DNA from: an uncultured Myxococcales bacterium
Lineage (GTDB): Bacteria > Myxococcota_A > Polyangia > GCA-2747355 > CAZCFB01
Assembly: GCA_964511535.1 (NCBI GenBank)
Contig: CAZEFW010000002.1
Coordinates: forward strand, 818-64,817
Reading direction: 5' to 3'
DNA: 64,000 nucleotides
The position numbers and the translations under genes were made by a program. Of this stretch, positions 3,578 through 34,992 are shown piece by piece. Below the pieces are notes generated by a model, which was given only the letters and a program-made list of their open reading frames with translations, was not told where the DNA came from and searched no databases. Each line of letters starts with the position of its first letter. The stretch's first letter is position 1.

Positions 3578-5215
3578 GTGAGGCCGCCGCTCTTCGACAT
3601 CCCCCGCACGGTCAGGACCTACGGCCACTACTTCGACGTGCACGCCGATGTGCTCGATGAGCTGCTGGTCTCGGTGGACCGCTGCCTGACCCGGGTGCTG
3701 CCGCCGGAGGTCTCCGCGAGGGTGGACCGCGAGGGCTCCACCCTCGAGCGTGGGCCGGACGGCCGCCTGCGCGTGCGGCGCCACCCCGACATCGAGGCCG
3801 CGCGCCTCGCCCTGGCAGAGCTCGGCTGCTTCCGCATCTTCTTGCCCGAGGACGTGGGCGGCTTCGGCCTGCCGCTCGGCGTCTACTACCTGGCGGTGCA
3901 GCTCATCTCGGCCCATGACACCTCCCTGGCGCTCATCTTCCTGGTGCACGGCAACGCCATGTACGGCCTGCACCGCTACGGCACGGCAGCCCAGCGCGCC
4001 CGCTACCTCCCCGCCCTGACCGCCGGCGATCAGCTCGCCACTGTGGCCTTCACCGAGCCGCGGGCTGGCTCCGACGCGGGGCTGATCCGCACCCGCGCGC
4101 GGCGGGACGGCGACAGCTGGGTGCTCGACGGAGACAAGCTGTTCATCACCAACGGCGGCGACGCGGATCTGCTCATCACCACCGCCCGCACCGGCCCCCT
4201 GGAGCGAGACATCGACGGCGTGAGCGCGTTCATCCTGGAGCGCGAGGCCGACGGCGTCGAGGTGCTCGGCCTGGAGGACAAGACCGGCCTCGGCGGCTCG
4301 CCCACCGCGGCCCTGGCATACAACGCGCTGCGGATCCCTGCCGACCGCATGCTGCACCGGGAAGGGAAGGGGGGCGTGGTGGCGTTCGCCGGGGTGGGCA
4401 TGACCCGGGTGAACATCGCCGCCCAGGCCCTCGGAATCGCCAAGCGCGCGTTCGGCGCGGCGGTGTCCTTCGCCCGCGACCGGGTCCAGGGCGGGCGCCG
4501 CATCCTGGAGCATGACGCCGTGCTGGAGCGGCTGAGCTCCGTGGCCTTCACCATCAGCGCCATGGAGAACCTGATCTGCCTCGACTCGGCCCTCGAGGCG
4601 CAGGGCCAGTGGCATGTACTGGAGATGTCGATCTGCAAGTACCACGCGAGCGAGGCGCTCCAGCCCCTGACCAGCCGCGCCATCAACGTCTTCGGCGGCT
4701 ACGGCGTGTGCCGCGAGTATGTCGTGGAGCGGTGCCGGCGCGAGGCCGTGGCCCTGCCGCTCTACGGCGGCACCAGCGAGATCCAGTGGTTCATCATCGC
4801 CCGGGAGCTGCTCGGCGCCCTCGACGGCACCAGCCGCGCCGACTACCGCGCGCGTTGGGGGGACGCGTGCGCCGCGCTGCAGCAGCGGTGCGCCGCCGAT
4901 CCCGCGCTCGCCCCCCTGGGCGAGGCCGTCGCCCGGGGCGACCGGCGCCTGTGGCGCTGTGTGCAGCAGGTGGCCGCGGCGGAGGCGCCGAGGGCCCCGC
5001 TTCACCGGCACCTCACCGAGATGTCGGTGGCGGTGACGGTGGCCCGGGCCATGGTCTGGCAGGGCGCCGCCGCCGACTCCAGCGCGCTGGATCGTCGCCT
5101 CGCGGAGTGGTCGGTGGAGCGGATGACCCGGGCGCTGGAGCGCCACGAGGGCGCGGTGCAGCAGGGGCGCACCCGCGCCGGGCTGAAACAAGAGCTGCGC
5201 GATCTCCTTGGCTAG
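3578..5215 (+). CDS. acyl-CoA dehydrogenase family protein
   Basis: Motifs LFITNGGDADLLITTART and YGGTSEIQWFIIARELLG are typical of ACAD FAD and substrate domains. GTG start. Confidence 0.75.
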   Translation: MRPPLFDIPRTVRTYGHYFDVHADVLDELLVSVDRCLTRVLPPEVSARVDREGSTLERGPDGRLRVRRHPDIEAARLALAELGCFRIFLPEDVGGFGLPLGVYYLAVQLISAHDTSLALIFLVHGNAMYGLHRYGTAAQRARYLPALTAGDQLATVAFTEPRAGSDAGLIRTRARRDGDSWVLDGDKLFITNGGDADLLITTARTGPLERDIDGVSAFILEREADGVEVLGLEDKTGLGGSPTAALAYNALRIPADRMLHREGKGGVVAFAGVGMTRVNIAAQALGIAKRAFGAAVSFARDRVQGGRRILEHDAVLERLSSVAFTISAMENLICLDSALEAQGQWHVLEMSICKYHASEALQPLTSRAINVFGGYGVCREYVVERCRREAVALPLYGGTSEIQWFIIARELLGALDGTSRADYRARWGDACAALQQRCAADPALAPLGEAVARGDRRLWRCVQQVAAAEAPRAPLHRHLTEMSVAVTVARAMVWQGAAADSSALDRRLAEWSVERMTRALERHEGAVQQGRTRAGLKQELRDLLG

Positions 5216-5263
5216 AAGATTGCTGCCCTCTCCGCATCCGTGCCATCATCGCGGCCCTCTCAC

Positions 5264-7255
<1,992 letters not shown>

Positions 7256-7352: not shown

Positions 7353-8699
7353 ATGTTCCATATAAAGCGTAGTGCGGTGGTAACGGGCGCCCTGGCCCTG
7401 GCCCTGGCGTTCGCCCTCGGCGCCTGCGGTGAGCGTCGGGTCAAAAAGCAGGACGGCGGCGCGGTGGGCGACGGCGGCCAGGTGAAGCGAGACGGCCCCG
7501 CCACCGGCGGAGATGGCCCGCGGCGCGACGCGTTCCGCCCCTGGGAGATCGGGGCGCCGGATCGTGCCATTCGCAAGGACAAGCGCGTCCGGCCGGACCG
7601 CAAGCTGCCGCCGGATCGCTGGATCCCGCCCAAGGACGGCCCGGTCAAGCCGCCGAAAGATAGCGGCCCCAAGCCGTGCAACAAGATGGGGATCCCGTGC
7701 CAGACCGACAAGAACTGCTGCGGCGGCTACCTGTGCGCCAAGCTGTTCTCGGGGGCCAAGGTGTGCACCAAGAAGTGCACCCCCGATGACCCCAACACCA
7801 AGCTGGTCGTCGAGGACACCTGCCCCGGCTACCCCAACAGCTTCGTCTGCGCCAACATCGCCGCGCCGCCAGCCATCGTGCATCGCTGCCTGCGCCGCTG
7901 CACCCCTGCCAAGGGCAAGAACCCCTGCCCGACGGGCCTGGCGTGCGACCCGCTCACCACCGTCATGACCAACAGCTCTGACAAGGCGGTGTGCGGCTGG
8001 CCCGCATGCAAGACGGGCAAGGACTGCCCGGTTCACCTGACCAAGCTCTGCTCGCCGCATTCGCCCGCGTGGCAGTGCCAGGGCATGCCCAAGGGGGTGT
8101 ACTGCGCGCCGGTGTTCCTCAGCTCCTTCTCCGGGCGCTGCGCCTACGAGGGCGTCTGCGACATCAAGAGCGGGCTGTGCACGACCCACAAGCTGGGCAA
8201 GAGCGCCGCCAAGGTGGGCGACCCGTGCACCGACGATCGCGACTGCGGCGGCAACATGGAGTGCCTGATGGAGGTGAGCACCTCCGGGGTCGCCTACTGG
8301 GCCAACGGCTACTGCTCAATCCGCGGCTGCGTCTTCTCCACCCTCAAGGAGCGCCAGTGTCCGTCCGGATCGGCCTGCTCTCGTAACCACTACGGCGGGC
8401 GCTGCCTCAAGACCTGCGACCTGAAGAAGGCGTCCAGCTGCCGCGGCTACGCCAAGGACAAGTACGGCGACTACGAGTGCCGCGCCTGGAGCAACTGGAA
8501 GGTCTCGCCGTCGCCAGTGTGCGAGGGCGGCTTCGTGGTGCCGTGCACCTCGTTCTCCGGCGGCTACACCGACTGCACCGTGCTCGGCCTGCAGGGCAAC
8601 CCCACGGACATGCAGTGCCGCGACATCAAGACCGGCAAGAAGCTGAGCGCCAAGCACCCCAACGGCTACTGCCTGGACAACACCGCCTCGGGCAAGTAG
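7353..8699 (+). CDS. Cys-rich secreted lipoprotein
   Basis: Lipoprotein signal with lipobox ALGAC, then roughly 40 Cys in repeated CxxGxxC patterns. Co-directional with the next lipoprotein gene. Confidence 0.55.
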   Translation: MFHIKRSAVVTGALALALAFALGACGERRVKKQDGGAVGDGGQVKRDGPATGGDGPRRDAFRPWEIGAPDRAIRKDKRVRPDRKLPPDRWIPPKDGPVKPPKDSGPKPCNKMGIPCQTDKNCCGGYLCAKLFSGAKVCTKKCTPDDPNTKLVVEDTCPGYPNSFVCANIAAPPAIVHRCLRRCTPAKGKNPCPTGLACDPLTTVMTNSSDKAVCGWPACKTGKDCPVHLTKLCSPHSPAWQCQGMPKGVYCAPVFLSSFSGRCAYEGVCDIKSGLCTTHKLGKSAAKVGDPCTDDRDCGGNMECLMEVSTSGVAYWANGYCSIRGCVFSTLKERQCPSGSACSRNHYGGRCLKTCDLKKASSCRGYAKDKYGDYECRAWSNWKVSPSPVCEGGFVVPCTSFSGGYTDCTVLGLQGNPTDMQCRDIKTGKKLSAKHPNGYCLDNTASGK

Positions 8700-8743
8700 C
8701 CCGCGCCGCGGCCACCGCAGGGCCGCGTGATAACCTGGTGTGC

Positions 8744-9565
8744 ATGAACCTGACCGATTTGAGACGACGACCCGCTGGCGTCGCCGGCTTGCTGCTGCTG
8801 GGAGCGATGGCCCTCAGCTGCTCCAGCGATCCGGAACCCGCGGGAGCGGATCTGGGCTTGCCCGACCGCGGCCCGGTGAGTCAGCAGCTCGACCTGCCCG
8901 TCTTCGACCTGGTGGGCGCTGACCTGCCAGGGGTGGACGCTGCTGCCCCGGCCCCGGACCTGTGGGCGGTTGACACCGCGCCGTCCAGCCAGCTTCGGGA
9001 CCACTCGGTGAACCAGGCGTCGGCCACCAGCGCCGGAGGCGGGGTGGTGGTGCTGTCCACCCAGGCTCAGCAGAACGCCGCCGGGGCCTTCAACGGCAGC
9101 GGCACCGGCAACAAGGCGATCCTCGGCGTCGCGGGGTACGACGGCGTCAAGCTGGCCAGCCTGTCCGCCATCGAGGTGCAAGCGACCCGGCTCAAGGGAA
9201 AGGGCACGCACTACCTGAACCTGCTTGTGGACCTGACCTGCGCCGGCGGCGCGCTGAAGATCCTGGTTTATGACCAGCTGAAGATCGGGACCAGCTCCTT
9301 CGACCTGAGCAAGGACAGCTTCAGGGTGGTGCGCAACCTCGACGGCAAGAACACGCCCCCCTGGCTGGGCGTCTCGTACACCCTCGCTCAGCTGACCAAG
9401 GATCATCCTGCGGCGTGCCTGCGGGACGCCGTGAGCCATGACAGCGGCATGCCGGCCGGCGTGAAGCTCTCCGCCCTGCTGGTGATCCTGGGTGACAGCA
9501 TGAACCAAAGCGAACACCAGGTGAAGGTCACCTCGCTCAAGGTGGGCGGGGTGGTCATCCAGTAG
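8744..9565 (+). CDS. hypothetical lipoprotein
   Basis: MNLTDLRRRPAGVAGLLLLGAMALSCSS signal with lipobox. The start was found by codon arithmetic inside the longer track ORF 8477..9565. Confidence 0.5.
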   Translation: MNLTDLRRRPAGVAGLLLLGAMALSCSSDPEPAGADLGLPDRGPVSQQLDLPVFDLVGADLPGVDAAAPAPDLWAVDTAPSSQLRDHSVNQASATSAGGGVVVLSTQAQQNAAGAFNGSGTGNKAILGVAGYDGVKLASLSAIEVQATRLKGKGTHYLNLLVDLTCAGGALKILVYDQLKIGTSSFDLSKDSFRVVRNLDGKNTPPWLGVSYTLAQLTKDHPAACLRDAVSHDSGMPAGVKLSALLVILGDSMNQSEHQVKVTSLKVGGVVIQ

Positions 9566-26424: not shown

Positions 26425-29079
26425 TCAATCCACGGTGATGCTCTTGGAGACGTTCTTCGGCACGTCCGGGTGCACGCCGTGGTCCTTGACGCCGAGGCGG
26501 TCGAGGTAGGCTGCCTTGCGCAGGCTCATCTCCAGGGCCAGCCGTTGCAGCACCACCGTGGCGGAGAAGCAGGCCATGAGCGTGTCGTTGGTGCGCGGCA
26601 GCTGGATGTAGACGGCGCGGTACTCGGGGCTGCCCGCGGGGGCCTTGGTGGCGGCCTGGCGCAGGGCGGGGTGCTCCTCGGCGATGACCACCGTGTTGGC
26701 GCCGCGGATCTTGTGGGTGTTGATCTGGGACACGGTGAGCTTCACGTCCCGCTCGTGGGCGCCGGTGATGTAGATCAGCGGGTACTGGCCGTCCATCACC
26801 GACAGCAGGTCGGTGCGGTCCACCACCTCGTCGAACAGCGCGTGCTCCTGGGCGTCGAGGGAGAAGTCTGCCGAGGCCGGGGCGAAGGGCGCGTCGGCCA
26901 CTGCCTGCACCAGGCGGCCGAGGCTGGCGCCGCCGGCGCCCTGCTCCGCCCCGCGGCGCACCAGCTCGTCGGCGGCCTTGCCCAGTCGCGACAGCAGCGC
27001 CTCGACCTCCAGCGGGCCGAGCAGAGTGTTGAAGCCGAGGATCGTGTTGGGCCCGTGCTTGAACTCGGACCCCTCGAACCCCTCGGTGTGGTTGAGCACC
27101 ACCTCCCGCACCTTGAGCGCCCCCTCCTTGGCCACGGACGTGAGCCGGGTGGCCATGATATGGATGCTCGGCGTCAGGTACAGCATGCGCGCCGCCTCCT
27201 CCACGTCGGCCGCGGTGGCTGCCACGGTCTCGCGGATCAGCGCCGGGATGGTGGGCAGCTTCTCCCGCCGCAGGGCCAGCTCCGGGCCGAGCTCCTCGGC
27301 GCGGCCCGGAGGCATGGCGCCGTCGCTCAGCCGCCGCTCGCCCAGGTGCAGGGCGAGCAGGTAGAAGAGCATCATCTGGTTGATGAAGCTCTTGGTGGCC
27401 GGCACCGCGATCTCCGGGCCGCAGCGCAGCGGGATCACCAGGTGGCTCTTCTCCTGGGCCAGCGTGGAGTTGACGTTGTTGACCAGCGCCACCCGGCCGA
27501 TGTCACGGCCGCTGGCGATGACGTCGTCCAGCACGTCGATCAGGTCCTTGGTCTCGCCGCTCTGGCTCACGGCGATGAACAGGTCGCCGTCTCTGATGCA
27601 GCGGGACACCTGGCCGCGGAACTCCCCCGGCAGCAGCGGCGTCAGGTCGGTGTGGGCCAGCTCGTTGAAGAACAGCGCGCCCGCCTTGGCCGCGTGGTAC
27701 GAGCTGCCGCAGCAGGTGACGTAGATGCGCCCGCCCCGGCGGATGGTCTGCAGGCACAGGTCGCCGAAGGCGCCGATGGCCGCGGCGTACTCCTCCACCT
27801 CCTGGCGCTCCAGCAGGGCGTCGAGCAGCAGCACGGCGCGCCTGTCGTGGACGCCGCGGGCCATGGGCAGCAGGTCAGCGAAGAAGCCGGCCTCCGCCGA
27901 GGCCATGCCCTCGTCCAGGCGCTCCGGCCGGGCCTCGTCCGCCGCGTGGTCCTGCATCTGCCCGGTCAGGGCGCGCACCGGGGCCAGGTCCGCCAGCTCG
28001 TGAAAGCAACGCTGGATGTCGTCGTCATCGTACTGGTCGCGCAGCCTGTCCAGGGCGGCGCGGATGGCCTGCAGGTCTTCAGCCGTGAGGGCCTCCAGCT
28101 GCGGGCGCAGGCGCGCCAGCCCGTCGCTGCCGCCGCAGAAGATGCGCGTCACCGCGCGGCAGGTATGCTCCTGGGCGCTGATCTCCTGGTCCATGAAGGT
28201 CTCGAACGGGGGGATCAGGCCGGTGTCCTTGGCGCGCAGGCGGCTGCGCCGCGGGCCGCGCTCCAGCGGCTCGCCGGCCTCGAGCTGCTCCACCCCGGAT
28301 GGCCCCTCCCGGCGCAGGTCCTGCACCGCGTACAGCTGGTAGCCCTCGGGGGTGTACTCCACCAGCTCCCCCTGACGCAGGGGCACCACCACCCGGGTCA
28401 TCTTCAGGATGCTCGACAGGTCGGACGAGGCGATGGAGAACGGCCCGCCGGGACCTCCCTTGCCGAGGCCGAAGTAGAGGCTGGAGCCCTGCTTGACCGC
28501 CCAGACCACGCGGCTCACCGGGTCAACGATGACCGCCGCGTAGGACCCCTGGAGCCGCGCGGCAGCGGCGACCCACGCCCGGCGCATGCACGCGCGTCGG
28601 GAGTCCGGCTCAAGCTGCTGCTTTTCGCCCAGCGCCGACAGCTCGCGGTTGAAGTAGTGCTCCACCGTGTGCACCACCATCTCCCCGTCGTTGTCCGACA
28701 GGACCTGGTGTCCCTCGTCGGTGAGCCACGCCTTGAGCTGGTCGCAGTTGGTGACGTTGCCGTTGTGCGCGCCGTAGAGGGTGAACCCCTTGCACCGCAC
28801 CAGGTGGGGCTGGGCGTTGACGTCGTTGACGGCGCCGAAGGTGGCCCATCGCACCTGGCCGCAGAAGATGGACCCGGCCATCTGCACCACGCCGAGCTGG
28901 TGCACCATGACCGACGGCGCCCCCACCCCCTTGGCCAGGCTCACCTGCTCGCCCTCGCCCTGGATCGCGGCGCCCGTGGAGTCGTAGCCGCGGTACTCCA
29001 GGGTCTTGAGCAGCTCGGCCGCCACCTGTCCCATGTCCTGCCGGTGGCGCTGAAAGGTCAGCCCGATGACGCCGCACAT
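26425..29079 (-). CDS. GlmS-like glutamine amidotransferase (Ntn class II) with two SIS domains, 884 aa with large insertions
   Basis: N-terminal MCGVIG nucleophile. FMDQEISAQEHTCRAV matches the GlmS linker. SIS motifs are CCGSSYHAAKAG and VSQSGETKDLIDVL, then HTEGFEGSEFKHGP, and a C-terminal KSITVD as in GlmS KSVTVE. Canonical GlmS is about 610 aa. Confidence 0.7.
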   Translation of the reverse strand: MCGVIGLTFQRHRQDMGQVAAELLKTLEYRGYDSTGAAIQGEGEQVSLAKGVGAPSVMVHQLGVVQMAGSIFCGQVRWATFGAVNDVNAQPHLVRCKGFTLYGAHNGNVTNCDQLKAWLTDEGHQVLSDNDGEMVVHTVEHYFNRELSALGEKQQLEPDSRRACMRRAWVAAAARLQGSYAAVIVDPVSRVVWAVKQGSSLYFGLGKGGPGGPFSIASSDLSSILKMTRVVVPLRQGELVEYTPEGYQLYAVQDLRREGPSGVEQLEAGEPLERGPRRSRLRAKDTGLIPPFETFMDQEISAQEHTCRAVTRIFCGGSDGLARLRPQLEALTAEDLQAIRAALDRLRDQYDDDDIQRCFHELADLAPVRALTGQMQDHAADEARPERLDEGMASAEAGFFADLLPMARGVHDRRAVLLLDALLERQEVEEYAAAIGAFGDLCLQTIRRGGRIYVTCCGSSYHAAKAGALFFNELAHTDLTPLLPGEFRGQVSRCIRDGDLFIAVSQSGETKDLIDVLDDVIASGRDIGRVALVNNVNSTLAQEKSHLVIPLRCGPEIAVPATKSFINQMMLFYLLALHLGERRLSDGAMPPGRAEELGPELALRREKLPTIPALIRETVAATAADVEEAARMLYLTPSIHIMATRLTSVAKEGALKVREVVLNHTEGFEGSEFKHGPNTILGFNTLLGPLEVEALLSRLGKAADELVRRGAEQGAGGASLGRLVQAVADAPFAPASADFSLDAQEHALFDEVVDRTDLLSVMDGQYPLIYITGAHERDVKLTVSQINTHKIRGANTVVIAEEHPALRQAATKAPAGSPEYRAVYIQLPRTNDTLMACFSATVVLQRLALEMSLRKAAYLDRLGVKDHGVHPDVPKNVSKSITVD

Positions 29080-29176: not shown

Positions 29177-30823
29177 TCAATCGGGCAGCTCGGTTGCTTC
29201 CTTGACCTCCTCCCAGCTCAGGCCGTGGCGGGCCAGGTACTTGCGCAGGCGGTCCGCGTCGTTGCGGGTTCGCCGCCGGGTGCGGCTGACGTCGAACAGC
29301 GCCCGACCCGCGGCGGACAGCGACGGCGCGGCGGCGCAGGCCCGCGCGACCTCGGCCAGCTGGGGCCGGTCGAAGCGATCCAGGGCGGCCAGCCGGTCCG
29401 GGCCCAGCAGGCGGAGCAGCAGCGCCTCCTCTCCGCGGCCTGCGCCGCCCCTGCCCCTGGACCAGCTCCGGCGCAGCCGGGCGATCTCGCCGTCCACCAC
29501 CTCCTCGGTGATGCGCCCCCGCGGGCAGAGGGTGGCCATGCGGGTCACCGCGCCGATCAGGTCGCGGAAGTTGCCGGACCATGTCGCCTGGTCCGAGCAG
29601 GCGAAGGCCAGGAACCGGTCTCGCGCCTCGCGGTTGAAGCTCACCGCGCGCGAGGTGCGGGCCGCCACCTGCTCCAGCTCATGATCCAGGTTGGGGGCGA
29701 TATCCTCGGGCCGCTGTCGCAGGCCGGGCAGCGCGAAGGTCCACAGATCGATGCGCGCCAGCAGGTCCTCGCGGAAGCGGCCGCGCGCCACCGCCCGGGA
29801 CAGGTCGCGGTTGGTGCCGCAGATGAGCTGGAAGTCGCTCGTCACCTCGCCCTGGTCCGGATCGGCCCCCATGGGCAGGAACATCCCCTCCTCGATGGCG
29901 TGCAGCAACATCGCCTGCTCGTCCAGGCCCAGCTCGCCCACCTCGTCCAGGAAGAGCAGCCCCTGGTGGGCCGCCTGCAGCAGCCCGGCGCGGTGGGTCG
30001 TGGCGCCGGTGAACGCGCCCCGGCGGTGGCCGAACAGGGTGGACAGGGCCATGTCGCCGCGCAGGGTGGCGCAGTTGACCTCCACCAGGCGGCCGGTGAG
30101 GTGGCCGCGCAGGCGCTTGAGCTGGTAGATGCGGCGGGCCAGCCGGGTCTTGCCGGCGCCGGTGGGCCCGGTGAGCAGGATCGGCTCCCGGGAGCGGATG
30201 GCCACGCGCTCGATCTGGTCCACCAGGTCGTTGAATGCGCGGTTGCGGGTCTCGATGCCCCCCTTGAGGAACGCCACGTCATCGTCCGCGTCGCGGGCGA
30301 AGCGCTGGGCCAGCAGGTCGTAGCGCGACAGGTCGAGGTCGATGACCGCGTGGCGCCCCGCGGGATCGTTGTTCCGGCGGCCCGGGGCGGGGCTGGTCTG
30401 AAGCAGCTTGCCGGGCAGGTGCCGGGACTCGGTGAGCAGGAAGAGACAGATCTGGGCCACGTGGGTGCCCGTAGTGATGTGAACCAGCAGCTCGTGGGTC
30501 TCCTGGTTGAGCGACAGCCCGCGGGAAAAGTCGTACAGCGTGGCGTAGACCTCCTCGAAGTCCCAGGGGTCGGTCAGGTCCACCGGGTGCAGCGTCACCT
30601 CGGTCTCCGGAGATACGGAGCGGATGTCATCGGCCACCGTGGCGGCCAGGCGGCGAAACGGGCGCTGGTGGATCAGCTCGTAGCGGTGGACCAGCAGGTC
30701 CTCCTGCATGCATACGGCCACCGAGGGGCGCCACTGCTCCCATCGCGTGGCCTCCGCGCCGCGGTCCAGCACCGGTCCCAGCATGCCGACCACCACCGTA
30801 TGCGGCTCGATTCGTTGGGACAT
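29177..30823 (-). CDS. rtcR: sigma54-dependent transcriptional activator RtcR (CARF N-domain + AAA+)
   Basis: Central AAA+ domain with LTGPTGAGKTRLARRIY, GAFTGA and FLDEVGELGLD. About 190 aa of N-terminal CARF-like domain; 548 aa overall, comparable to E. coli RtcR. Located between the two repair modules. Confidence 0.8.
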   Translation of the reverse strand: MSQRIEPHTVVVGMLGPVLDRGAEATRWEQWRPSVAVCMQEDLLVHRYELIHQRPFRRLAATVADDIRSVSPETEVTLHPVDLTDPWDFEEVYATLYDFSRGLSLNQETHELLVHITTGTHVAQICLFLLTESRHLPGKLLQTSPAPGRRNNDPAGRHAVIDLDLSRYDLLAQRFARDADDDVAFLKGGIETRNRAFNDLVDQIERVAIRSREPILLTGPTGAGKTRLARRIYQLKRLRGHLTGRLVEVNCATLRGDMALSTLFGHRRGAFTGATTHRAGLLQAAHQGLLFLDEVGELGLDEQAMLLHAIEEGMFLPMGADPDQGEVTSDFQLICGTNRDLSRAVARGRFREDLLARIDLWTFALPGLRQRPEDIAPNLDHELEQVAARTSRAVSFNREARDRFLAFACSDQATWSGNFRDLIGAVTRMATLCPRGRITEEVVDGEIARLRRSWSRGRGGAGRGEEALLLRLLGPDRLAALDRFDRPQLAEVARACAAAPSLSAAGRALFDVSRTRRRTRNDADRLRKYLARHGLSWEEVKEATELPD

Positions 30824-30840
30824 GGGTCTTATCCTACGGG

Positions 30841-30880
30841 ATAGGTTGATATAAATCTATATACGATGTTTGTCGGAGCC
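30841..30880. promoter_or_regulatory. AT-rich island (probable enhancer/IHF region and rtcR promoter) between rtcR start and sigma54 promoter
   Basis: ataggttgatataaatctatatacgatgtttgtc is about 75% AT in a ~70% GC background. It lies 60-100 nt upstream of the sigma54 -24/-12 element. Confidence 0.45.
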
Positions 30881-30938
30881 AGGTCGGGTGCCCATGTCCT
30901 GACAGCATAATCATTGGGTTTTTCTTTCAGGCCCGGTC

Positions 30939-30954
30939 TGGCACATCCCCTGCA
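30939..30954 (+). promoter_or_regulatory. sigma54 (-24/-12) promoter for the SPFH-rtcA-rtcB operon
   Basis: TGGCACatcccctGCA has GG and GC separated by exactly 10 nt. Consensus is TGGCACG-N4-TTGCA. It is divergent from rtcR. Confidence 0.65.
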
Positions 30955-31092
30955 AACTTCAATGGATATCGCCTCCGGGCCAGCGGCGCGGTGGAGCCGG
31001 GCAAAGGCTGTTGCTCCATCGTGTACCGAACATGGCGTCGAACCGGGTGCGGTGAAAGCGGCAGGGCGGGCAAAGCCGTCCTGCCCGGTCAA

Positions 31093-31109
31093 GCAGGTTC
31101 GACTCCTGC
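31093..31109 (+). ncRNA. tRNA T-arm mimic (GCAGG-TTCGACT-CCTGC) within the ~480-nt sigma54 leader; candidate Y-RNA/YrlA-like structured RNA module
   Basis: A perfect 5-bp stem with a 7-nt TΨC-like loop TTCGACT. No canonical anticodon or acceptor arms are foldable by eye, so it is not a tRNA gene. Confidence 0.25.
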
Positions 31110-31436
31110 ACTGCAATGGGATGCAGACCCTGGATCACGTCCCGGGGCGAGCGGTTCCCTTGTGGAGGTCGGGCCCACGCGGCAGGGCAGCACCGGAGGA
31201 TCGGGGCTGCAGGCCAGGTGGGCCAGCGTCGCGAGGCGCCAGCAGCGCGCGGATTGAAGCGGCTGCCATCAACCTGCCAGGAGGTTCTGGCAGGGGAGGC
31301 GGTGGCTCGAGCAGCGCTCCGCGCCGGGCAGCGTGACCCCCATGAGGGCGGCGTTGGTACCGGGACACTCGAACCACAGCCCAGCGGGGCTGAAGCGATA
31401 AACGCAACACCAGGACTCCAACGAAAGGAGGACAAC

Positions 31437-32564
31437 ATGTTCAAGCGAGTTCACCTGCGCAGCTGGGAGCGCGGCTTTTTGTTCCAGGACGGCGAGTTTC
31501 GCCGGGTGCTGGAGCCGGGAACGCACTGGCTGTTCGACCCGCTGTTTCGGGCGCGCGTGGACCGCATGTCCATGCGCCAGACCGTGTCGTCGCACGGCGA
31601 GCTTGACCTGTTTGCCCACCAGCTGGAGGGCCGGGAGGATCTGCGCGTGCTGCACCTGACCGACGGCGAGCGCGCCCTGGTGTGGGAGGACGGCCGGTTC
31701 GTGGCCGCGCTGGAGCCGGGCCGGCACCTGATCTGGACCGCCCTGCACGAGGTGCGGGTGGAGGTGGCGCGTCCCGGGGCGGCGACCGAGGAGGGCGCGG
31801 CCGCGGGAGCGCGCTTCGAGCACCCGGAGCTGGCGGCCATCCTGGCGTCTGGACAGGCGCAGGAGGCGCTGGGGGTGCACAATGTGCCGGAGCATTTCTC
31901 GGCGGTGGCCTTCCTGGACGGCAAGTCCATGGGCGTGCTGGGGCAGGGCCGCCACGCGTTCTGGCAGGGGCTGGGGCAGGTGCAGCTGCTGCTGGTGGAC
32001 CGGCGCGAGCTGGTGCTGGACGTTGGGGGGCAGGAGCTGATGACCCGCGACAAGGTGACCCTGCGGCTGAACCTGACCGCCACGATTCGCGTGACCGATC
32101 CGAGCCGGGCCACCGCCGAGGTGAGCGACTTCCGTCAGGCGCTGTACCGCGACGCGCAGCTGGTGCTGCGGGCTGCGGTGGGCGCGCGGGAGCTGGACGA
32201 GCTGCTGGCGGACAAGGACGCCCTGGCGCAGGACATGACCGGGGCGCTGGCGACGCGGGCCGCACAGTACGGCGTGAAGGTGGTGACCCTGGGGATCAAG
32301 GATGTGATCCTGCCGGGTGAGATGAAGGAGCTGATGAACCGCGTCATCGAGGCGCGCAAGGCGGCAGAGGCGGCGGTGATCACCCGGCGCGAGGAGACCG
32401 CTGCCATGCGCAGCCAGGCCAACACGGCCAGGCTGCTGGAGAAGAACGAGGCGCTGATGCGCATGCGCGAGCTGGAGCTGCTGGAGAAGCTGTTCTCCAA
32501 CTCCAACCTGAACGTGGTGCTGGGCGAAAAGGGCCTGGCCGACCGCGTCTTCAACCTGCTGTAG
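31437..32564 (+). CDS. SPFH/band-7 (stomatin/prohibitin-like) domain protein, first gene of rtc operon
   Basis: AAAGGAGG RBS. SPFH core LDGKSMGVLGQGRHAFW...DKVTLRLNLTATIRVTDP, followed by a coiled-coil tail. Confidence 0.7.
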   Translation: MFKRVHLRSWERGFLFQDGEFRRVLEPGTHWLFDPLFRARVDRMSMRQTVSSHGELDLFAHQLEGREDLRVLHLTDGERALVWEDGRFVAALEPGRHLIWTALHEVRVEVARPGAATEEGAAAGARFEHPELAAILASGQAQEALGVHNVPEHFSAVAFLDGKSMGVLGQGRHAFWQGLGQVQLLLVDRRELVLDVGGQELMTRDKVTLRLNLTATIRVTDPSRATAEVSDFRQALYRDAQLVLRAAVGARELDELLADKDALAQDMTGALATRAAQYGVKVVTLGIKDVILPGEMKELMNRVIEARKAAEAAVITRREETAAMRSQANTARLLEKNEALMRMRELELLEKLFSNSNLNVVLGEKGLADRVFNLL

Positions 32565-32577
32565 GGTGGAGGAGATC

Positions 32578-33594
32578 ATGATCCGCATAGATGGTTCCAT
32601 GGGAGAGGGGGGCGGCCAGGTGCTGCGCACCTCCCTCGGCCTGGCGCTGGTCACGGGACAGCCGGTGCGGCTGGAGCAGATCCGCGCGGGGCGGCCGCGG
32701 CCGGGGCTCATGCGCCAGCACCTGACGGCGGCGCGGGCGGCGGCGGAGGTGGGCGGCGGGCGACTGCAGGGCGATGCCATCGGCTCGGGGGAGTTGACCT
32801 TCAACCCGGGGCGCGTTCAGCCGGGGCGCTACCGGTTCGCCGTGGGCACGGCGGGCAGCGCCACGCTGGTGCTGCAGACGGTCTTGCCGGCGCTGCTGAC
32901 GGCGGACGGGCCGTCGGAGCTGGAGCTGGAGGGGGGGACGCACAACGCCTGGGCGCCGCCGTTCGACTTCCTGCAGCGGGTGTTTCTGCCCCTGGCGGGG
33001 CGCATGGGCGCGCGGGTGGAGGTGAAGCTGGAGCGCCCCGGGTTCTACCCGGCGGGCGGGGGCCTGTTCACGGCCCGGGTGACGCCGGTGGAGGCGTGGT
33101 CGCGGCTGGAGCTGATGGAGCGTGGCTCGCTGGTGTCGCGGCGGGTGCGGGCGCTGGTGGCGCGGCTGCCGGCCCACATCGGCCACCGCGAGCTGGCCGT
33201 GATGCAGGACCTGCTAGGCCTGCCCGGCGACGAGCTGGAGGTGCAGGAGATGGAGGACTCGCGCGGCCCGGGCAACATGGTCTCGCTGGAGCTGGAGTAC
33301 GACCGGGTCACCGAGCTGTTCTGCGGCTTCGGCGAGAAGGGCAAGCCGGCCGAGCGGGTGGCCCGCGAGGTGGTCAAGCAGGTCAAGCGGTACATGGCCT
33401 GCTCGGCGCCGGTGGGGCGGCACCTGGCGGATCAGCTGCTGGTGCCCATGGCCCTGGCCGGGGGCGGCGTGTTCCGCACCCTGGCGCTGACCCGCCACAC
33501 CACCACCAACATGGAGGTGGTGCGGCGCTTTGTTGAGGTGAACATCACCGCCGAGGAGCGGGCCCACGACGACGTCGTGGTGACCGTGGCCTGA
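32578..33594 (+). CDS. rtcA: RNA 3'-terminal phosphate cyclase RtcA
   Basis: IDGSMGEGGGQVLRTSLGLALVTGQPVRL is the RtcA signature. GGAGGAG RBS. Confidence 0.9.
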   Translation: MIRIDGSMGEGGGQVLRTSLGLALVTGQPVRLEQIRAGRPRPGLMRQHLTAARAAAEVGGGRLQGDAIGSGELTFNPGRVQPGRYRFAVGTAGSATLVLQTVLPALLTADGPSELELEGGTHNAWAPPFDFLQRVFLPLAGRMGARVEVKLERPGFYPAGGGLFTARVTPVEAWSRLELMERGSLVSRRVRALVARLPAHIGHRELAVMQDLLGLPGDELEVQEMEDSRGPGNMVSLELEYDRVTELFCGFGEKGKPAERVAREVVKQVKRYMACSAPVGRHLADQLLVPMALAGGGVFRTLALTRHTTTNMEVVRRFVEVNITAEERAHDDVVVTVA

Positions 33595-33612: not shown

Positions 33613-34992
33613 ATGAAGCCGAAGGAGATCATGGCGCTGGGGGTGCCCAAGGGCAAGGCGTGCAAGGCGGTGCTCAAGGCCATGGCCGCGCTGGCCGAGG
33701 TGGGCATCGCGGGGGACGAGCTGCGGCGGGTGCTGGCGGAGATGGCCCGGGACCCGGACGCGTTTCTGGACCACCCCCAGCTGGGGGCGGCGGCGGAGGC
33801 CGTACGCGCCACGCCTGTGTTCACGCCGCGGGACGCGCCCGCGCCGTGGCGTCAGTGGGGCGAGGACCTGGACGACAACGCCATAAAGCAGCTGCACCAG
33901 GCGTGCTCGCTGCCGGTGTCGGTGGCCGGGGCGCTGATGCCCGACGCGCACATGGGCTACGGGCTGCCCATCGGCGGCGTGCTGGCCACCCGGGGGGCGG
34001 TGATCCCGTACGCCGTGGGCATGGACATCGCCTGCCGCATGCGTCTGTCGGTGCTCGACTGGCCGGTGGAGGCGCTGGACCGGCGGCAGGAGCCGCTCAT
34101 CGAGGCGGTGCAGCAGGAGACCCGCTTCGGCGTGGGCGCCAGCTTCAAGGGCGGGACCCGGCGTGACCACGCCGTGATGCAGGAGGACTGGTCGTTCCTG
34201 CCCCTGCTGAAGGCGAACCGGGACCAGGCGTGGGCCCAGCTGGGCAGCTCCGGGTCGGGCAACCACTTCGTGGAGTACGGCGAGCTCACCGTCGACGAGG
34301 CGGACGGGCCGCTGGGCCTGGAGCCCGGGGTCTACCTGGCGCTGCTGTCCCACTCGGGCAGCCGGGGCATGGGCGCCAAGATCGCTGATCACTTCAGCAA
34401 GCTGGCGGTCAAGCGCCACCCGGAGCTGCCGCGGGAGCTGCAGCGGCTGGCGTGGCTCGACCTGGACAGCGAGGACGGCCAGGCCTACTGGGCGGCCATG
34501 GAGCTCATGGGCCGCTACGCCGCGGCAAACCACGAGCTGATCCACCGCCATGTGCTGCAGGCGCTGGGCGCCGAGGCGGTGGCGTCGGTGGAGAACCACC
34601 ACAACTTCGCCTGGCTCGAGGAGCATGGCGGGGAGCAGGTGGTGGTGCACCGTAAGGGCGCCACGCCGGCGGGGGAGGGCGTGCTCGGGGTGATCCCCGG
34701 GTCCATGGGTACGGCGGGGTACGTGGTGCGGGGCTTGGGTGAGCCCGCGTCGCTGAACTCGGCGAGCCACGGCGCGGGGCGGGCCATGAGCCGCAAGGAG
34801 GCCAAGCGGCGGTTCAAGTGGGCCCAGGCGCGCAAGCTCCTGGCCAGCCGCAAGGTGCACCTGATCTCGGGCGGGCTGGACGAGGTGCCCATGGCCTACA
34901 AGAAGATCGAGCAGGTCATGGCGGCCCAGCGCGACCTGGTGCAGCCGGTGGCGCGCTTCGACCCGCGGCTGGTGAAGATGGCCGGGGGGTGA
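33613..34992 (+). CDS. rtcB: RNA-splicing ligase RtcB (3'-phosphate/5'-hydroxyl ligase)
   Basis: SGSGNHFVEYGEL, ENHHNFAW, HGAGRAMSR and C-terminal PVARFDPRLV are conserved RtcB blocks. AGGAGG RBS. Confidence 0.9.
   Translation: MKPKEIMALGVPKGKACKAVLKAMAALAEVGIAGDELRRVLAEMARDPDAFLDHPQLGAAAEAVRATPVFTPRDAPAPWRQWGEDLDDNAIKQLHQACSLPVSVAGALMPDAHMGYGLPIGGVLATRGAVIPYAVGMDIACRMRLSVLDWPVEALDRRQEPLIEAVQQETRFGVGASFKGGTRRDHAVMQEDWSFLPLLKANRDQAWAQLGSSGSGNHFVEYGELTVDEADGPLGLEPGVYLALLSHSGSRGMGAKIADHFSKLAVKRHPELPRELQRLAWLDLDSEDGQAYWAAMELMGRYAAANHELIHRHVLQALGAEAVASVENHHNFAWLEEHGGEQVVVHRKGATPAGEGVLGVIPGSMGTAGYVVRGLGEPASLNSASHGAGRAMSRKEAKRRFKWAQARKLLASRKVHLISGGLDEVPMAYKKIEQVMAAQRDLVQPVARFDPRLVKMAGG

Follow-up and report, generated by a model that had tools for sequence, protein, structure and literature searches.

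Our analysis revealed that the long leader in front of the slipin gene of an RNA repair operon belongs, in diverged form, to a widespread family of structured RNAs of about 400-550 nt with a built-in tRNA look-alike. The operon was encountered in a stretch of 64,000 nucleotides from an uncultured Myxococcales bacterium, which was analysed as a whole and is called the window in the following. RNAs of this family consist of three modules, namely a 5′ domain, a tRNA-like module in the middle and a multi-helix 3′ domain of about 230-300 nt closed by a long helix (P1), and they comprise at least 12 helices. They were found in Planctomycetota, Acidobacteriota, Desulfobacterota, Geobacter and other lineages, always immediately upstream of and co-oriented with a slipin gene. 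Rfam 15 gave no match to the family RNA except tRNA, and the large RNA is absent from this database. We consider it rather probable that the window RNA is both a member of this three-module family and the cognate, trans-acting RNA of a soluble slipin assembly, co-produced with RtcA and RtcB.

Genomic context and predicted promoter

The locus is built around a sigma54 promoter, with rtcR on one side and, on the other, a leader of about 470 nt followed by the slipin (Band_7) gene, rtcA and rtcB. The divergent rtcR (29177-30823, minus strand) encodes an enhancer-binding activator for sigma54 whose N-terminal domain is of the RtcR/CARF type (Pfam RtcR, 3e-76, and Sigma54_activat), and its identity was confirmed by NCBIfam NF038308 (RNA_repair_RtcR; 764.7 bits against a cut-off of 650). 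On the plus strand follow the slipin (SPFH/Band_7) gene for a protein of 375 aa (31437-32564; Pfam Band_7, 2.4e-31), rtcA for an RNA 3′-phosphate cyclase (32566-33594; Pfam RTC, 2e-79) and rtcB for an RNA ligase (33613-34992; Pfam RtcB, 2.1e-88). The proteins encoded across the operon and the DNA flanking it are a GlmS-like protein, RtcR, slipin, RtcA, RtcB and a LamG-like protein, and no gene for Ro60/Rsr (TROVE) was found among them. RtcR has been described as being activated by 5′ tRNA halves ending in a 2′,3′-cyclic phosphate (PMC7790460).

An initial annotation of this DNA had proposed a near-consensus -24/-12 element divergent from rtcR, and this reading was borne out. The element TGGCACATCCCCTGCA (30939-30954, plus strand; TGGCAC-N5-CTGCA) is the sole match in the window to TGGCAC-N5-YTGCW and places the predicted transcription start at about 30965. 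It has GG at -24 and GC at -12 in correct spacing, it is divergent from a gene confirmed as rtcR, and it is kept in relatives, namely as TCTGGCACAggCCCTGCAAA in the syntenic relative (L081-L083) and as equivalent -24/-12 elements in other slipin loci with divergent rtcR (L004, L032, L033, L050, L065, L070, L071, L076 and L078). Taken on the window sequence alone, the pattern was also found in 25 of 100 shuffles. The long leader stood as well, at about 470 nt instead of the approximately 480 nt given earlier: slipin homologues start at the ATG at 31437, where a strong ribosome-binding site is present (AAAGGAGG, 31424-31431).

Between the promoter and rtcR lies an AT-rich island adjoining the rtcR start (30830-30880, no strand assigned), which is a candidate for an RtcR upstream activating site and/or the rtcR promoter. 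The earlier figure of about 75% AT was too high, the value for 30841-30880 being 65%, while the exceptional AT peak as such was upheld: the most AT-rich 40-mers of the whole 64 kb (67.5% AT, in a window of 69.9% GC) start at 30830-30835. A TATAAAT-type motif in the island is common to seven of 11 related intergenic regions with divergent rtcR. The island may just as well bind RtcR or contain the rtcR promoter as be the IHF-bending or enhancer region suggested before.

Evidence for a conserved RNA family

On the window sequence alone the motifs of the leader are not beyond chance. GGTTCRANTCC, for example, turned up in 16 of 100 shuffles, and the single-sequence fold of the leader reached z = -4.4. 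The significance of the window features comes from comparative data, that is, from conservation and compensatory changes, and not from single-sequence statistics. Helices were defined by hand and tested on MAFFT alignments that had not been fitted to structure. In alignment A3, 84.0% of cells were paired compared with 38-45% in slid controls, and 268 double-sided changes were counted compared with 53-90; the corresponding values for alignment A5 were 87.7% compared with 34-43%, and 275 compared with 74-91. RNAalifold recovered the fold in part from a raw alignment of 65 sequences. A profile HMM of the 5′ domain and the tRNA-like module, whose seed did not include the window, matched the window with E=2.5e-8. 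The hairpins that had been listed as separate features belong to a single conserved three-domain RNA, in which they form the T-arm, a hairpin in the linker and the P5 tip.

Searches with Rfam did not recognize this RNA. At gathering score the window gave no match at all, YrlA and Y_RNA included, and at E<=10 the leader gave only tRNA-Sec (19.4 bits, E 0.53) and a chance match to CRISPR-DR9 on the conserved M2 strand. In 16 and then three related loci the RNA region gave tRNA-type matches only.

The 5′ domain of the window RNA (30966-31035, plus strand) was matched by a profile HMM built without the window or its closest relative L081 (E=1.4e-7). Its helix S2, in which CCA-G-CGG-CGC-GGTGGAGC (30980-30997) pairs with GCTCCATC-GTG-TA-CCG-AACA-TGG (31013-31035), covaries in alignment A5, has all its pairs kept in the window row, and also appears in the unconstrained minimum free energy (MFE) fold. 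The closing helix S1, for which the family pairs the 5′ end with a stretch directly preceding the tRNA-like module (81% paired, with nine of ten pairs covarying), is not evident in the window, where its 3′ strand (A5 columns 185-194) is deleted. A window-specific element that L081 lacks is GGCGTCGAACC (31034-31044, plus strand), which is complementary to the T-loop at 10 of 11 positions; such an alternative pairing would hide the T-arm.

The 3′ domain (31139-31366, plus strand) is supported by family covariation on A3, by a covariance model (R1) and by the MFE fold. Without constraints, the latter reproduces P1 (31139-31165 with 31340-31366), P2 (GGTC 31167-31170 with GACC 31335-31338), P3 (31172-31178 with 31218-31224), P5 (31258-31267 with 31298-31307) and P7 (AGCGC 31244-31248 with GCGCT 31314-31318). 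The tip of P5 is the perfect 8-bp hairpin noted earlier (31273-31294). R1, which was built without the window, gave its best window match at 31239-31335 (18 bits, E=0.0045), spanning P7, P5 and the P6 hairpin (31319-31335). The seeds of R1 are constructs in which variable hairpin tips were replaced by GAAA, so that the model under-scores real sequences; some of the seed parents score just 15-42 bits, and a missing R1 match is therefore not evidence of absence. The P4 hairpin (31226-31239) is weakly supported, with 65% of cells paired on A3. The window agrees with the family, whose 3′ domain is marked by P1, P2, P3, P5, P6 and P7 with the conserved strands GCAG-YGCGYGGAT and CTCRAGC..GCNCTCCGC, while its own P1 is diverged in sequence and carries no tandem GA. 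A further hairpin at A3 columns 91-94/101-104, which would make P7 a pseudoknot, showed only wobble-compatible variation and was dropped. A 3′-domain profile gave no window match in nhmmer under default filters, and with --max only the M3 region was matched (E=0.0056); the 3′ domain of the window is too diverged for detection by sequence-only methods.

The tRNA-like module

The part of the tRNA-like module that the window has kept is the T-arm GCAGG-TTCGACT-CCTGC (31093-31109, plus strand). The earlier description of this element as a tRNA T-arm mimic within a long structured leader held up in the comparison of homologous leaders: in 42 sequences the T stem is 100% paired, with changing pair types (GC16/AU14/GU12 and GC24/AU18) and 35 compensatory cells. 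T54, T55, C56, A58 and T60 of the loop are invariant across the family, and the loop of the window conforms to TTCRANT. The T-arm is conserved in the syntenic L081-L083, and two compensatory pairs distinguish that of the window from that of L081. Directly after it follows, as had been noted, a second hairpin, CTGCA-ATGGGA-TGCAG (H1; 31111-31126, plus strand), which shows a compensatory change to CTGCG/CGCAG in L081; other loci have one or two hairpins in this linker position.

In most loci ARAGORN calls the homologous module a tRNA, and the Rfam tRNA model gives it 40-64 bits. Its features nevertheless mark it as a tRNA-like element and not a canonical tRNA. The acceptor stem of the family has about 4 bp, and in about 60% of sequences its three outermost pairs are not formed. 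Most members keep a 7-nt anticodon-type loop with A37. Of 34 seven-nt loops, only 19 have U33, and 23 different "anticodons" occur among the 34; in the family the "anticodon" sometimes has 4 nt or reads as stop. The window copy is reduced, in that the D arm and the acceptor were lost, the anticodon arm was replaced, and the T-arm alone was kept. In the place of the anticodon arm it carries a 10-bp hairpin with a loop that is not tRNA-like (GGCAGGGCGG-GCAAAG-CCGTCCTGCC; 31060-31085, plus strand); this hairpin is absent from L081. A full cloverleaf was accordingly not found in the window, and the expectation that it would not be called a tRNA proved correct (no tRNA by ARAGORN in the window, no Rfam tRNA match in the leader). 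In L081 the T-arm is the sole part of the module that was retained, and there is no anticodon arm at all. The two reduced copies, one with a T-arm and a foreign hairpin and the other with a T-arm only, suggest that the T-loop/elbow is what the mimicry cannot do without.

Association with slipin, rtc genes and tRNA arrays

GGTTCRANYCC was detected 270-870 nt upstream of slipin in nearly all of 80 slipin loci with enough upstream DNA, the distance from T-arm to slipin in the window being 328 nt, and the family RNA lies 60-110 nt before the slipin start codon. A scan of metagenomes that started from the RNA gave 72 motif matches with enough downstream DNA. Slipin came next in 23 of these, and these are the same loci that have the T-loop motif upstream. 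One other locus (L148) has T-loop motifs upstream and no slipin match in the 1064 nt downstream, and the remaining matches have neither slipin nor an upstream T-loop motif.

In the window and about 13 of the 80 loci, rtcA and rtcB come after slipin, while most others are without rtc genes, and the link to RtcB is thus not universal in the wider RNA family. In many genomes the RNA and its slipin gene lie within arrays of 15-30 tRNA genes and not in rtc operons; at one locus (L084) they are followed by tRNAs and then by RtcB. A scan of viral sequences yielded three loci with slipin, one of which shows the same succession of tRNA array, RNA and slipin. This locus is probably host DNA, and we found no evidence for a phage origin. 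A literature search on the association of SPFH/slipin, RtcB and tRNA arrays returned no further description.

The slipin protein itself has no predicted membrane helix. Its AlphaFold model (pLDDT 83) consists of N-terminal beta-repeat domains, an SPFH domain and a long helix, and Foldseek aligned it with stomatin and, over full length, with the major vault protein (404-450 columns, E 1e-11 to 1e-8). This predicted resemblance to the vault is that of one slipin monomer and carries no information on RNA binding.

Possible function of the slipin-linked RNA

The most likely role of the RNA, as far as can be inferred from sequence, would be that of the RNA partner of a slipin ribonucleoprotein (RNP) acting on damaged tRNAs. 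In the window the RNA begins at the predicted RtcR/sigma54 start site, which makes it the first product of a unit of RNA, slipin, rtcA and rtcB. Upon tRNA damage, active RtcR would lead to production of the RNA together with slipin, RtcA and RtcB, and the RNA, acting in trans, would be cognate to a slipin assembly that is oligomeric and soluble. Such an RNP might be comparable to Ro60 with Y RNA or to the vault (MVP, vault RNA, TEP1), and the T-loop/elbow mimic might either engage tRNA-handling factors or position broken tRNAs for RtcA and RtcB.

The same arrangement might also be explained by a cis-acting regulatory leader, whose fold controls read-through or translation of slipin and, in the window, of rtcA and rtcB; slipin itself, a fragment of tRNA or some small ligand might bind this fold, with P1 as terminator or attenuator. 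The fixed, co-oriented site 60-110 nt before slipin fits this explanation as well as it fits an RNP, a run of at least four T follows the 3′ strand of P1 in 14 of 34 non-rtc loci, and a weak CUCC/GGAG hairpin in the window overlaps the Shine-Dalgarno sequence. However, with 400-550 nt, at least 12 helices and an embedded tRNA-like module the RNA exceeds known leaders by far in size, there is no sequence conservation from P1 to the start codon, and the T-run occurs neither in any of five rtc-operon loci nor in the window, where a terminator would block rtcAB. We regard a cis-acting leader as unlikely, and it is not mutually exclusive with an RNP. Less probable still is a decoy or sensor, in which the tRNA-like module would bait anticodon nucleases and thereby shield real tRNAs by competition or yield the cyclic-phosphate ends that activate RtcR. 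The activation of RtcR by tRNA halves with such ends and the proposal of the YrlA tRNA-like domain as a nuclease inhibitor (PMC7790460) would agree with it, as would the anticodon-type loop with A37 of most family members. The 6-nt GCAAAG loop on a 10-bp stem in the window and the missing anticodon arm in L081 do not, and the large conserved flanking domains and the tie to slipin would be left unexplained. Moreover, the RNA lies downstream of the predicted RtcR-dependent promoter and therefore cannot be the primary RtcR signal.

The initial annotation had favoured a Y-RNA-like module, and the rtc operon setting together with the T-arm mimic would suit a true YrlA homologue that lost its Ro60 partner. 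This origin seems very improbable to us. Neither YrlA (RF02553) nor Y_RNA was matched in 30700-31600 at E<=10, related loci gave one chance YrlA match over tandem tRNAs (23 bits against a threshold of 69), the operon has no TROVE gene, and the partner in every locus is slipin. That such an element would be unusual in lacking Ro is beside the point, since the first gene after the leader, which the annotation had left unnamed, is Band-7/slipin, the expected partner. We give hardly any credence to a decayed tRNA gene accompanied by chance GC-rich hairpins in an ordinary 5′ UTR, or to a protein-coding region (ORFs 30914-31336 or 30991-31257, or an in-frame extension from the ATG at 31116). In their favour, neither ARAGORN nor Rfam calls a tRNA, the motif statistics of the single sequence are weak and long ORFs are common in DNA of 70% GC; against these points stand nucleotide conservation across phyla, hundreds of compensatory changes in paired columns, and the fact that HMM and covariance models from other phyla match the window. 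A coding extension also conflicts with the ribosome-binding site and start shared by slipin homologues, and a protein-coding leader was rejected because of the covariation pattern and this conserved start.

The RNA partner of a slipin RNP remains our preferred reading. If it is correct, it bears on how repair by RtcB and RtcA finds its substrates and on the role of scaffold modules such as Ro-Y RNA and Band-7-b7a. A covarying RNA shared across phyla, its tie to slipin and its embedding in tRNA arrays lead to a concrete RNP hypothesis that is experimentally tractable, as there is a defined RNA for cloning, probing and imaging, and carriers are available in culture, for example Desulfogranum japonicum DSM 18378 (locus L029). 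Aquisphaera insulae likewise has a slipin (P0101). A wider interpretation, which we put forward as doubtful, would see in the slipin-linked RNA a previously unrecognised class of large, structured non-coding RNA, dedicated to a soluble, vault-like SPFH assembly for tRNA handling, coupled to RtcA and RtcB in some lineages, located in the main tRNA-gene arrays of Planctomycetota and Acidobacteriota, and with b7a-tRNA as its central module only. If true, the few large RNAs of bacteria whose function is not known would gain a candidate, and the vault RNP a possible counterpart in bacteria.

Comparison with known systems

The operon resembles rtcBA of E. coli and Salmonella in its divergent rtcR, its -24/-12 promoter and the downstream rtcA and rtcB, but has rtcA before rtcB and opens with a large non-coding RNA and a slipin gene. 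With canonical tRNA genes the tRNA-like module shares its detection as a tRNA in most loci and the fact that it often closes a tRNA array, with tRNA-Cys directly before it. It differs from them in its acceptor of about 4 bp, its non-conserved U33 and its unconstrained "anticodon", and its flanks are conserved structured domains and not processing spacers.

The eukaryotic vault (MVP, vault RNA, TEP1) is similar in that its protein combines beta-repeat domains, an SPFH-like shoulder and a long helix, and slipin is likewise coupled, in this case genetically, to a structured RNA. Slipin, however, has two extra repeats and not nine, and its RNA is unrelated to vault RNA, so that the likeness, known here from genes and a model, is to be read as an analogy only.

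A closer relative is the band-7-associated tRNA-like RNA (b7a-tRNA), which according to Wang et al. 2018 (10.1101/312249) was predicted by Burroughs & Aravind (NAR 2016), and for which that account gives an association with Band-7 and RtcB and a presumed redundancy with YrlA/Rsr. The tRNA-like module of the family corresponds to b7a-tRNA as described there: both are tRNA-like sequences with a canonical T-arm next to a Band-7/SPFH gene and RtcB, and b7a-tRNA presumably serves the Band-7 protein as cognate RNA, in functional parallel to YrlA. The window copy shares the adjacency to and co-orientation with Band-7 and the link to RtcB, and differs in full tRNA resemblance, as it is without D arm and acceptor and passes no tRNA detector. 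To our knowledge, b7a-tRNA has never been experimentally validated. What goes beyond it, as summarised in 10.1101/312249, is the place of the tRNA-like unit in the middle of a larger, three-part RNA of 400-550 nt with covarying 5′ and 3′ domains, and the occurrence of a reduced copy in the window.

The earlier suggestion that the module stands in for rsr-yrlA is in line with the same source, where the Band-7-associated RNA is already treated as the counterpart of YrlA. Both YrlA, which goes with Ro60 (Rsr) in rsr-yrlBA-rtcBA, and the slipin-linked RNA of the window are non-coding and include a part that mimics tRNA. Both also belong to an RNA repair operon under known or, in the window, predicted control of RtcR and sigma54, next to a protein that forms, or in the case of slipin may form, a ring or cage. 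In contrast to YrlA, the slipin-linked RNA has no match to the Rfam YrlA sequence and structure and no Ro60/TROVE gene in its operon and flanks; its partner is an SPFH protein, and it is three to five times larger.

Promoter and leader of the rtc operon

The rtcR gene (29177-30823, minus strand; Pfam and NCBIfam NF038308, 765 bits) diverges from an operon on the plus strand that encodes a slipin with SPFH/Band_7 domain (375 aa, 31437-32564) as first gene 3′ of the leader, followed by rtcA (32566-33594) and rtcB (33613-34992). No TROVE/Ro gene was found within or adjoining the operon, as the initial annotation had noted, and the sigma54 element it proposed, TGGCACATCCCCTGCA, was recovered at 30939-30954 (plus strand) as the sole such match in the window, the same pattern being present in 25% of shuffles. 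The AT island described upstream does exist, at a lower AT content than the ~75% claimed: positions 30841-30880 are 65% AT, and the highest-AT 40-mers of the window (69.9% GC overall) begin at 30830-30835 with 67.5% AT. Seven of eleven rtcR-promoter intergenic regions, namely those of the window (30830-30880) and of the homologous loci L004, L017, L033, L050, L065 and L076, share a TATAAAT-type motif near the rtcR start, in many cases as a repeat or palindrome. The motif may be bound by RtcR or may form the rtcR promoter. A GATase and SIS domain (GlmS-like) gene of 884 aa (26425-29079, minus strand) adjoins rtcR, and this neighborhood is kept in the closest relative (L081:1-1786).

All three hairpins initially described are present in the leader, i.e. 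the T-arm-like GCAGG-TTCGACT-CCTGC (31093-31109), CTGCA-ATGGGA-TGCAG (31111-31126) and a perfect 8-bp hairpin (31273-31294). The T-loop motif also occurred in 16% of shuffles and, judged singly, the sigma54 and T-arm motifs are not beyond chance expectation; the whole leader folds better than shuffled sequence (z = -4.4). ARAGORN called no tRNA in the window, as had been anticipated, and Rfam gave no matches at gathering score in the full 64 kb. With the leader searched at E<=10, the proposed kinship to Y RNA/YrlA gained no match, and the sole hit was a 19-bit tRNA-Sec-like alignment (31046-31117). Positions 31034-31044 (GGCGTCGAACC) are 10/11 complementary to the T-loop sequence GGTTCGACTCC (31096-31106), a pairing absent from L081 that would form an alternative fold hiding the T-arm.

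Relatives and genomic contexts

We collected 80 genome loci around homologous slipin genes. Of those with sufficient upstream DNA, almost all carried GGTTCRANYCC on the slipin strand, 270-870 nt ahead of the gene. About 13 loci are window-like, rtcR-divergent operons from Geobacter, Desulfobacterales, Omnitrophota, Verrucomicrobiota and some Planctomycetota. Most Planctomycetota/Acidobacteriota loci encode slipin without rtc genes, within arrays of 15-30 same-strand tRNA genes; slipin and RNA lie inside such arrays in L001, L016, L020, L023, L027, L040, L043, L046, L053, L058, L066, L067 and L087. The recurrent order in Planctomycetota is ...His-[~700 nt]-Trp-Thr-Arg-Arg-Arg-Cys-[RNA]-slipin, and in L001 and L067 tRNA genes resume 3′ of slipin. 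One locus, L084:3428-9386, joins both contexts: RNA and slipin (4001-5506) precede eight tRNA genes and, beyond these, an RtcB gene (7878-9386). The ~700-nt interval separating tRNA-His from tRNA-Trp is conserved among the arrays, and in L046 a 219-aa ORF (1631-2290, plus strand) with a motif of the HNH-endonuclease type (HHTCQYCG...LDHVVPRAQGG...WENCVLACTACNTRK) lies in it. The same tRNA array, with RNA (51.7 bits to R1, our covariance model of the RNA 3′ domain) and slipin, is found on the 94 kb contig L087 (IMG/VR UViG_3300007072_000340), which is catalogued as viral and probably stems from a host genome or a provirus.

The linkage was also evident from the RNA side. When metagenomes were scanned for exact matches to the 18-mer GYAGTGCGYGGATACCGC, slipin was found downstream in 23 of 72 loci with enough downstream DNA (distance ~225-430 nt in 21 of the 23), and the same 23 loci carry the T-loop motif 150-230 nt upstream. 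The remaining loci have neither, in a number that fits chance matches for the collection size; the one exception, L148, has T-loop motifs upstream and no slipin match in 1064 nt downstream. The RNA is strictly linked to slipin and frequently to RtcA/RtcB or tRNA arrays.

A conserved three-domain RNA

In related loci the tRNA-like module was called a tRNA by ARAGORN and reached 40-64 bits against Rfam tRNA, with erratic "anticodons" including 4-nt and stop anticodons. The initial annotation had called for covariation in homologous leaders, and in 42 unedited sequences the T stem was indeed 100% paired, the D stem invariant and the anticodon stem 95.5% paired with 40 compensatory cells, while conservation of the acceptor stem was limited to the inner four pairs. 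Among 34 seven-nt anticodon-type loops, 19 had U33 and 23 different middle triplets occurred. By its sequence the module is tRNA-like and no decoding tRNA.

The alignments show this unit to be the central part of a more extensive conserved RNA. Upstream of it, in both contexts, we found GATrnCGnC..GGCCAGCGGCGC-hairpin-GTGTTCCGnACATGGGTTCTGA..GGCGrTGTC. A structure of helices S1 (10 bp) and S2 and the cloverleaf, tested on the same 42 sequences, had 87.7% of cells paired vs 34-43% in slid controls and 275 cells with double-sided changes vs 74-91. A tRNA-Cys(GCA) gene ends (..CTCCCACCGGCGTCTC) only ~15-25 nt 5′ of S1 in many Planctomycetota loci (columns 20-45 of alignment A5; e.g. L024, L040, L054, L055), and the RNA 5′ end may therefore arise by tRNA 3′ processing.

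When 65 segments spanning the tRNA-like unit and the sequence up to the slipin start were aligned, three conserved blocks emerged downstream, namely GCCC-GA-GGGAGGCGG..CG..GATC-GGCCG, GGCAGCA..GCC-yTGCAGTGCGyGGATACCGC, and GCTCAAGCg-CACTCCGCa-loop-GTGTGATC..CGAACG..CCGCCtCCC-GA-GGGC, often with a T-run after it. We propose a fold closed by the long helix P1, which contains a tandem GA internal loop. P2 comes next and leads to a junction of P3, P4, P7 and P6, and P7 is connected to P5 by a conserved internal loop. For the test, 41 sequences were aligned with MAFFT after removal of the variable hairpin tips, and the alignment was not fitted to the structure. The proposed fold paired 84.0% of cells (slid partners 38-45%, column shuffles 71%), a contrast that is inflated since the structure was derived from the tested sequences. 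Cells changed on both sides, a count not so inflated, numbered 268 (slid partners 53-90, column shuffles 97; 0/500 shuffles as high), and the covariation score was 0.434 (~0.10 and 0.22, respectively). Clean pair switches include UA21/CG13, AU21/GC11, UA29/CG9 and AU14/GC10/CG4; P4 is weak (65% paired). Neither flanking domain of the related loci had Rfam matches.

The window copy is a diverged member of this family. An HMM of the 5′ domain, with the window and L081 kept out of the seed, matched 30966-31035 (E=1.4e-7), beginning precisely where the sigma54 start site is predicted, and an HMM extended by the tRNA-like module, with the window kept out of the seed, matched 30965-31111 (E=2.5e-8). 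R1 (170 positions, 51 pairs; window and L081 kept out of the seed) gave 40-100 bits at many non-seed loci, 25.8 bits at L081 and, with filters off, a single best window match at 31239-31335 (18 bits, E=0.0045; runner-up 10.8 bits) that aligns P7, P5 and P6. The unconstrained MFE fold of 31127-31385 independently yields P1 (31139-65 with 31340-66), P2 (GGUC/GACC), P3, P7 (AGCGC/GCGCU) and P5, including the 8-bp hairpin at its tip. The P1 sequence departs from consensus, the S1 3′ strand, acceptor and D arm are deleted, and a 10-bp stem with GCAAAG loop replaces the anticodon arm. In the closest syntenic relative (L081-L083; 63% slipin identity, shared GlmS-like/rtcR/slipin/rtcA/rtcB order) the sigma54 element is kept, as are the T-arm (GCAGG/CCTGC changed to GTGGG/CCCAC, two compensatory pairs) and the following hairpin (one compensatory pair); the 10-bp hairpin of window 31060-31085 is missing, and the module of L081 is reduced to the T-arm only. 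Since other parts of the module were lost or replaced and the T-arm kept, the T-arm is the most strongly constrained part in this lineage.

The slipin protein

Slipin homologues number thousands, at ~50-57% identity and mainly in Planctomycetota. An in-frame ATG at 31116 opens a 482-aa ORF (31116-32564, plus strand) running through the RNA 3′ domain; most homologues are 366-370 aa long, and their alignments begin with the first residue of the protein started at 31437. Gene callers could over-extend slipin at its 5′ end in GC-rich genomes. The predicted model (pLDDT 83) consists of two extra N-terminal beta-repeat domains, the SPFH domain and a long helix, with no membrane helix, and the strands that open the Band_7 profile recur at the N-terminus. 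Foldseek aligned stomatin, prohibitin and HflK across ~230 columns, and major vault protein (MVP) over the full length of the slipin model across 404-450 columns (E 1e-11 to 1e-8). This favors, but does not prove, a soluble scaffold that forms rings or cages, possibly of vault-like architecture.

Potential function and relation to known elements

RtcR is activated by 5′ tRNA halves with 2′,3′-cyclic phosphate ends (PMC7790460). Damage to tRNA would activate RtcR, and the sigma54 promoter would co-produce the RNA, slipin, RtcA and RtcB. Slipin might then bind the RNA as its cognate RNA, whose T-loop/elbow mimic could recruit tRNA-handling factors or organize broken tRNAs for end-healing and ligation. 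As the principal alternative, the RNA would be a cis-acting leader. A run of at least four T directly after the P1 3′ strand was present in 14/34 non-rtc loci vs 0/5 rtc-operon loci (columns 179-188 of alignment A4), a pattern suggesting that in arrays the RNA is terminated as a separate species, whereas in operons read-through is obligatory; both roles can coexist. The RNA might instead act as a nuclease decoy, which is disfavored for the window/L081 lineage because the anticodon arm is dispensable there.

The Y-RNA-like module without Ro in the initial annotation was right in spirit and overlooked the slipin partner. The element has a name in the literature: a band-7-associated tRNA-like RNA (b7a-tRNA) was predicted by Burroughs & Aravind (2016), as summarized by Wang et al. 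2018 (10.1101/312249). Going by that summary, the module is therefore a known predicted element with the slipin gene as partner, and our literature search returned no mention of b7a-tRNA beyond it. Compared with b7a-tRNA as the 2018 summary alone presents it, the large covariation-supported RNA enclosing the tRNA mimic appears to be new, as do the reduced T-arm-only variants and the placement in tRNA arrays, next to the gene for an SPFH protein that resembles MVP.
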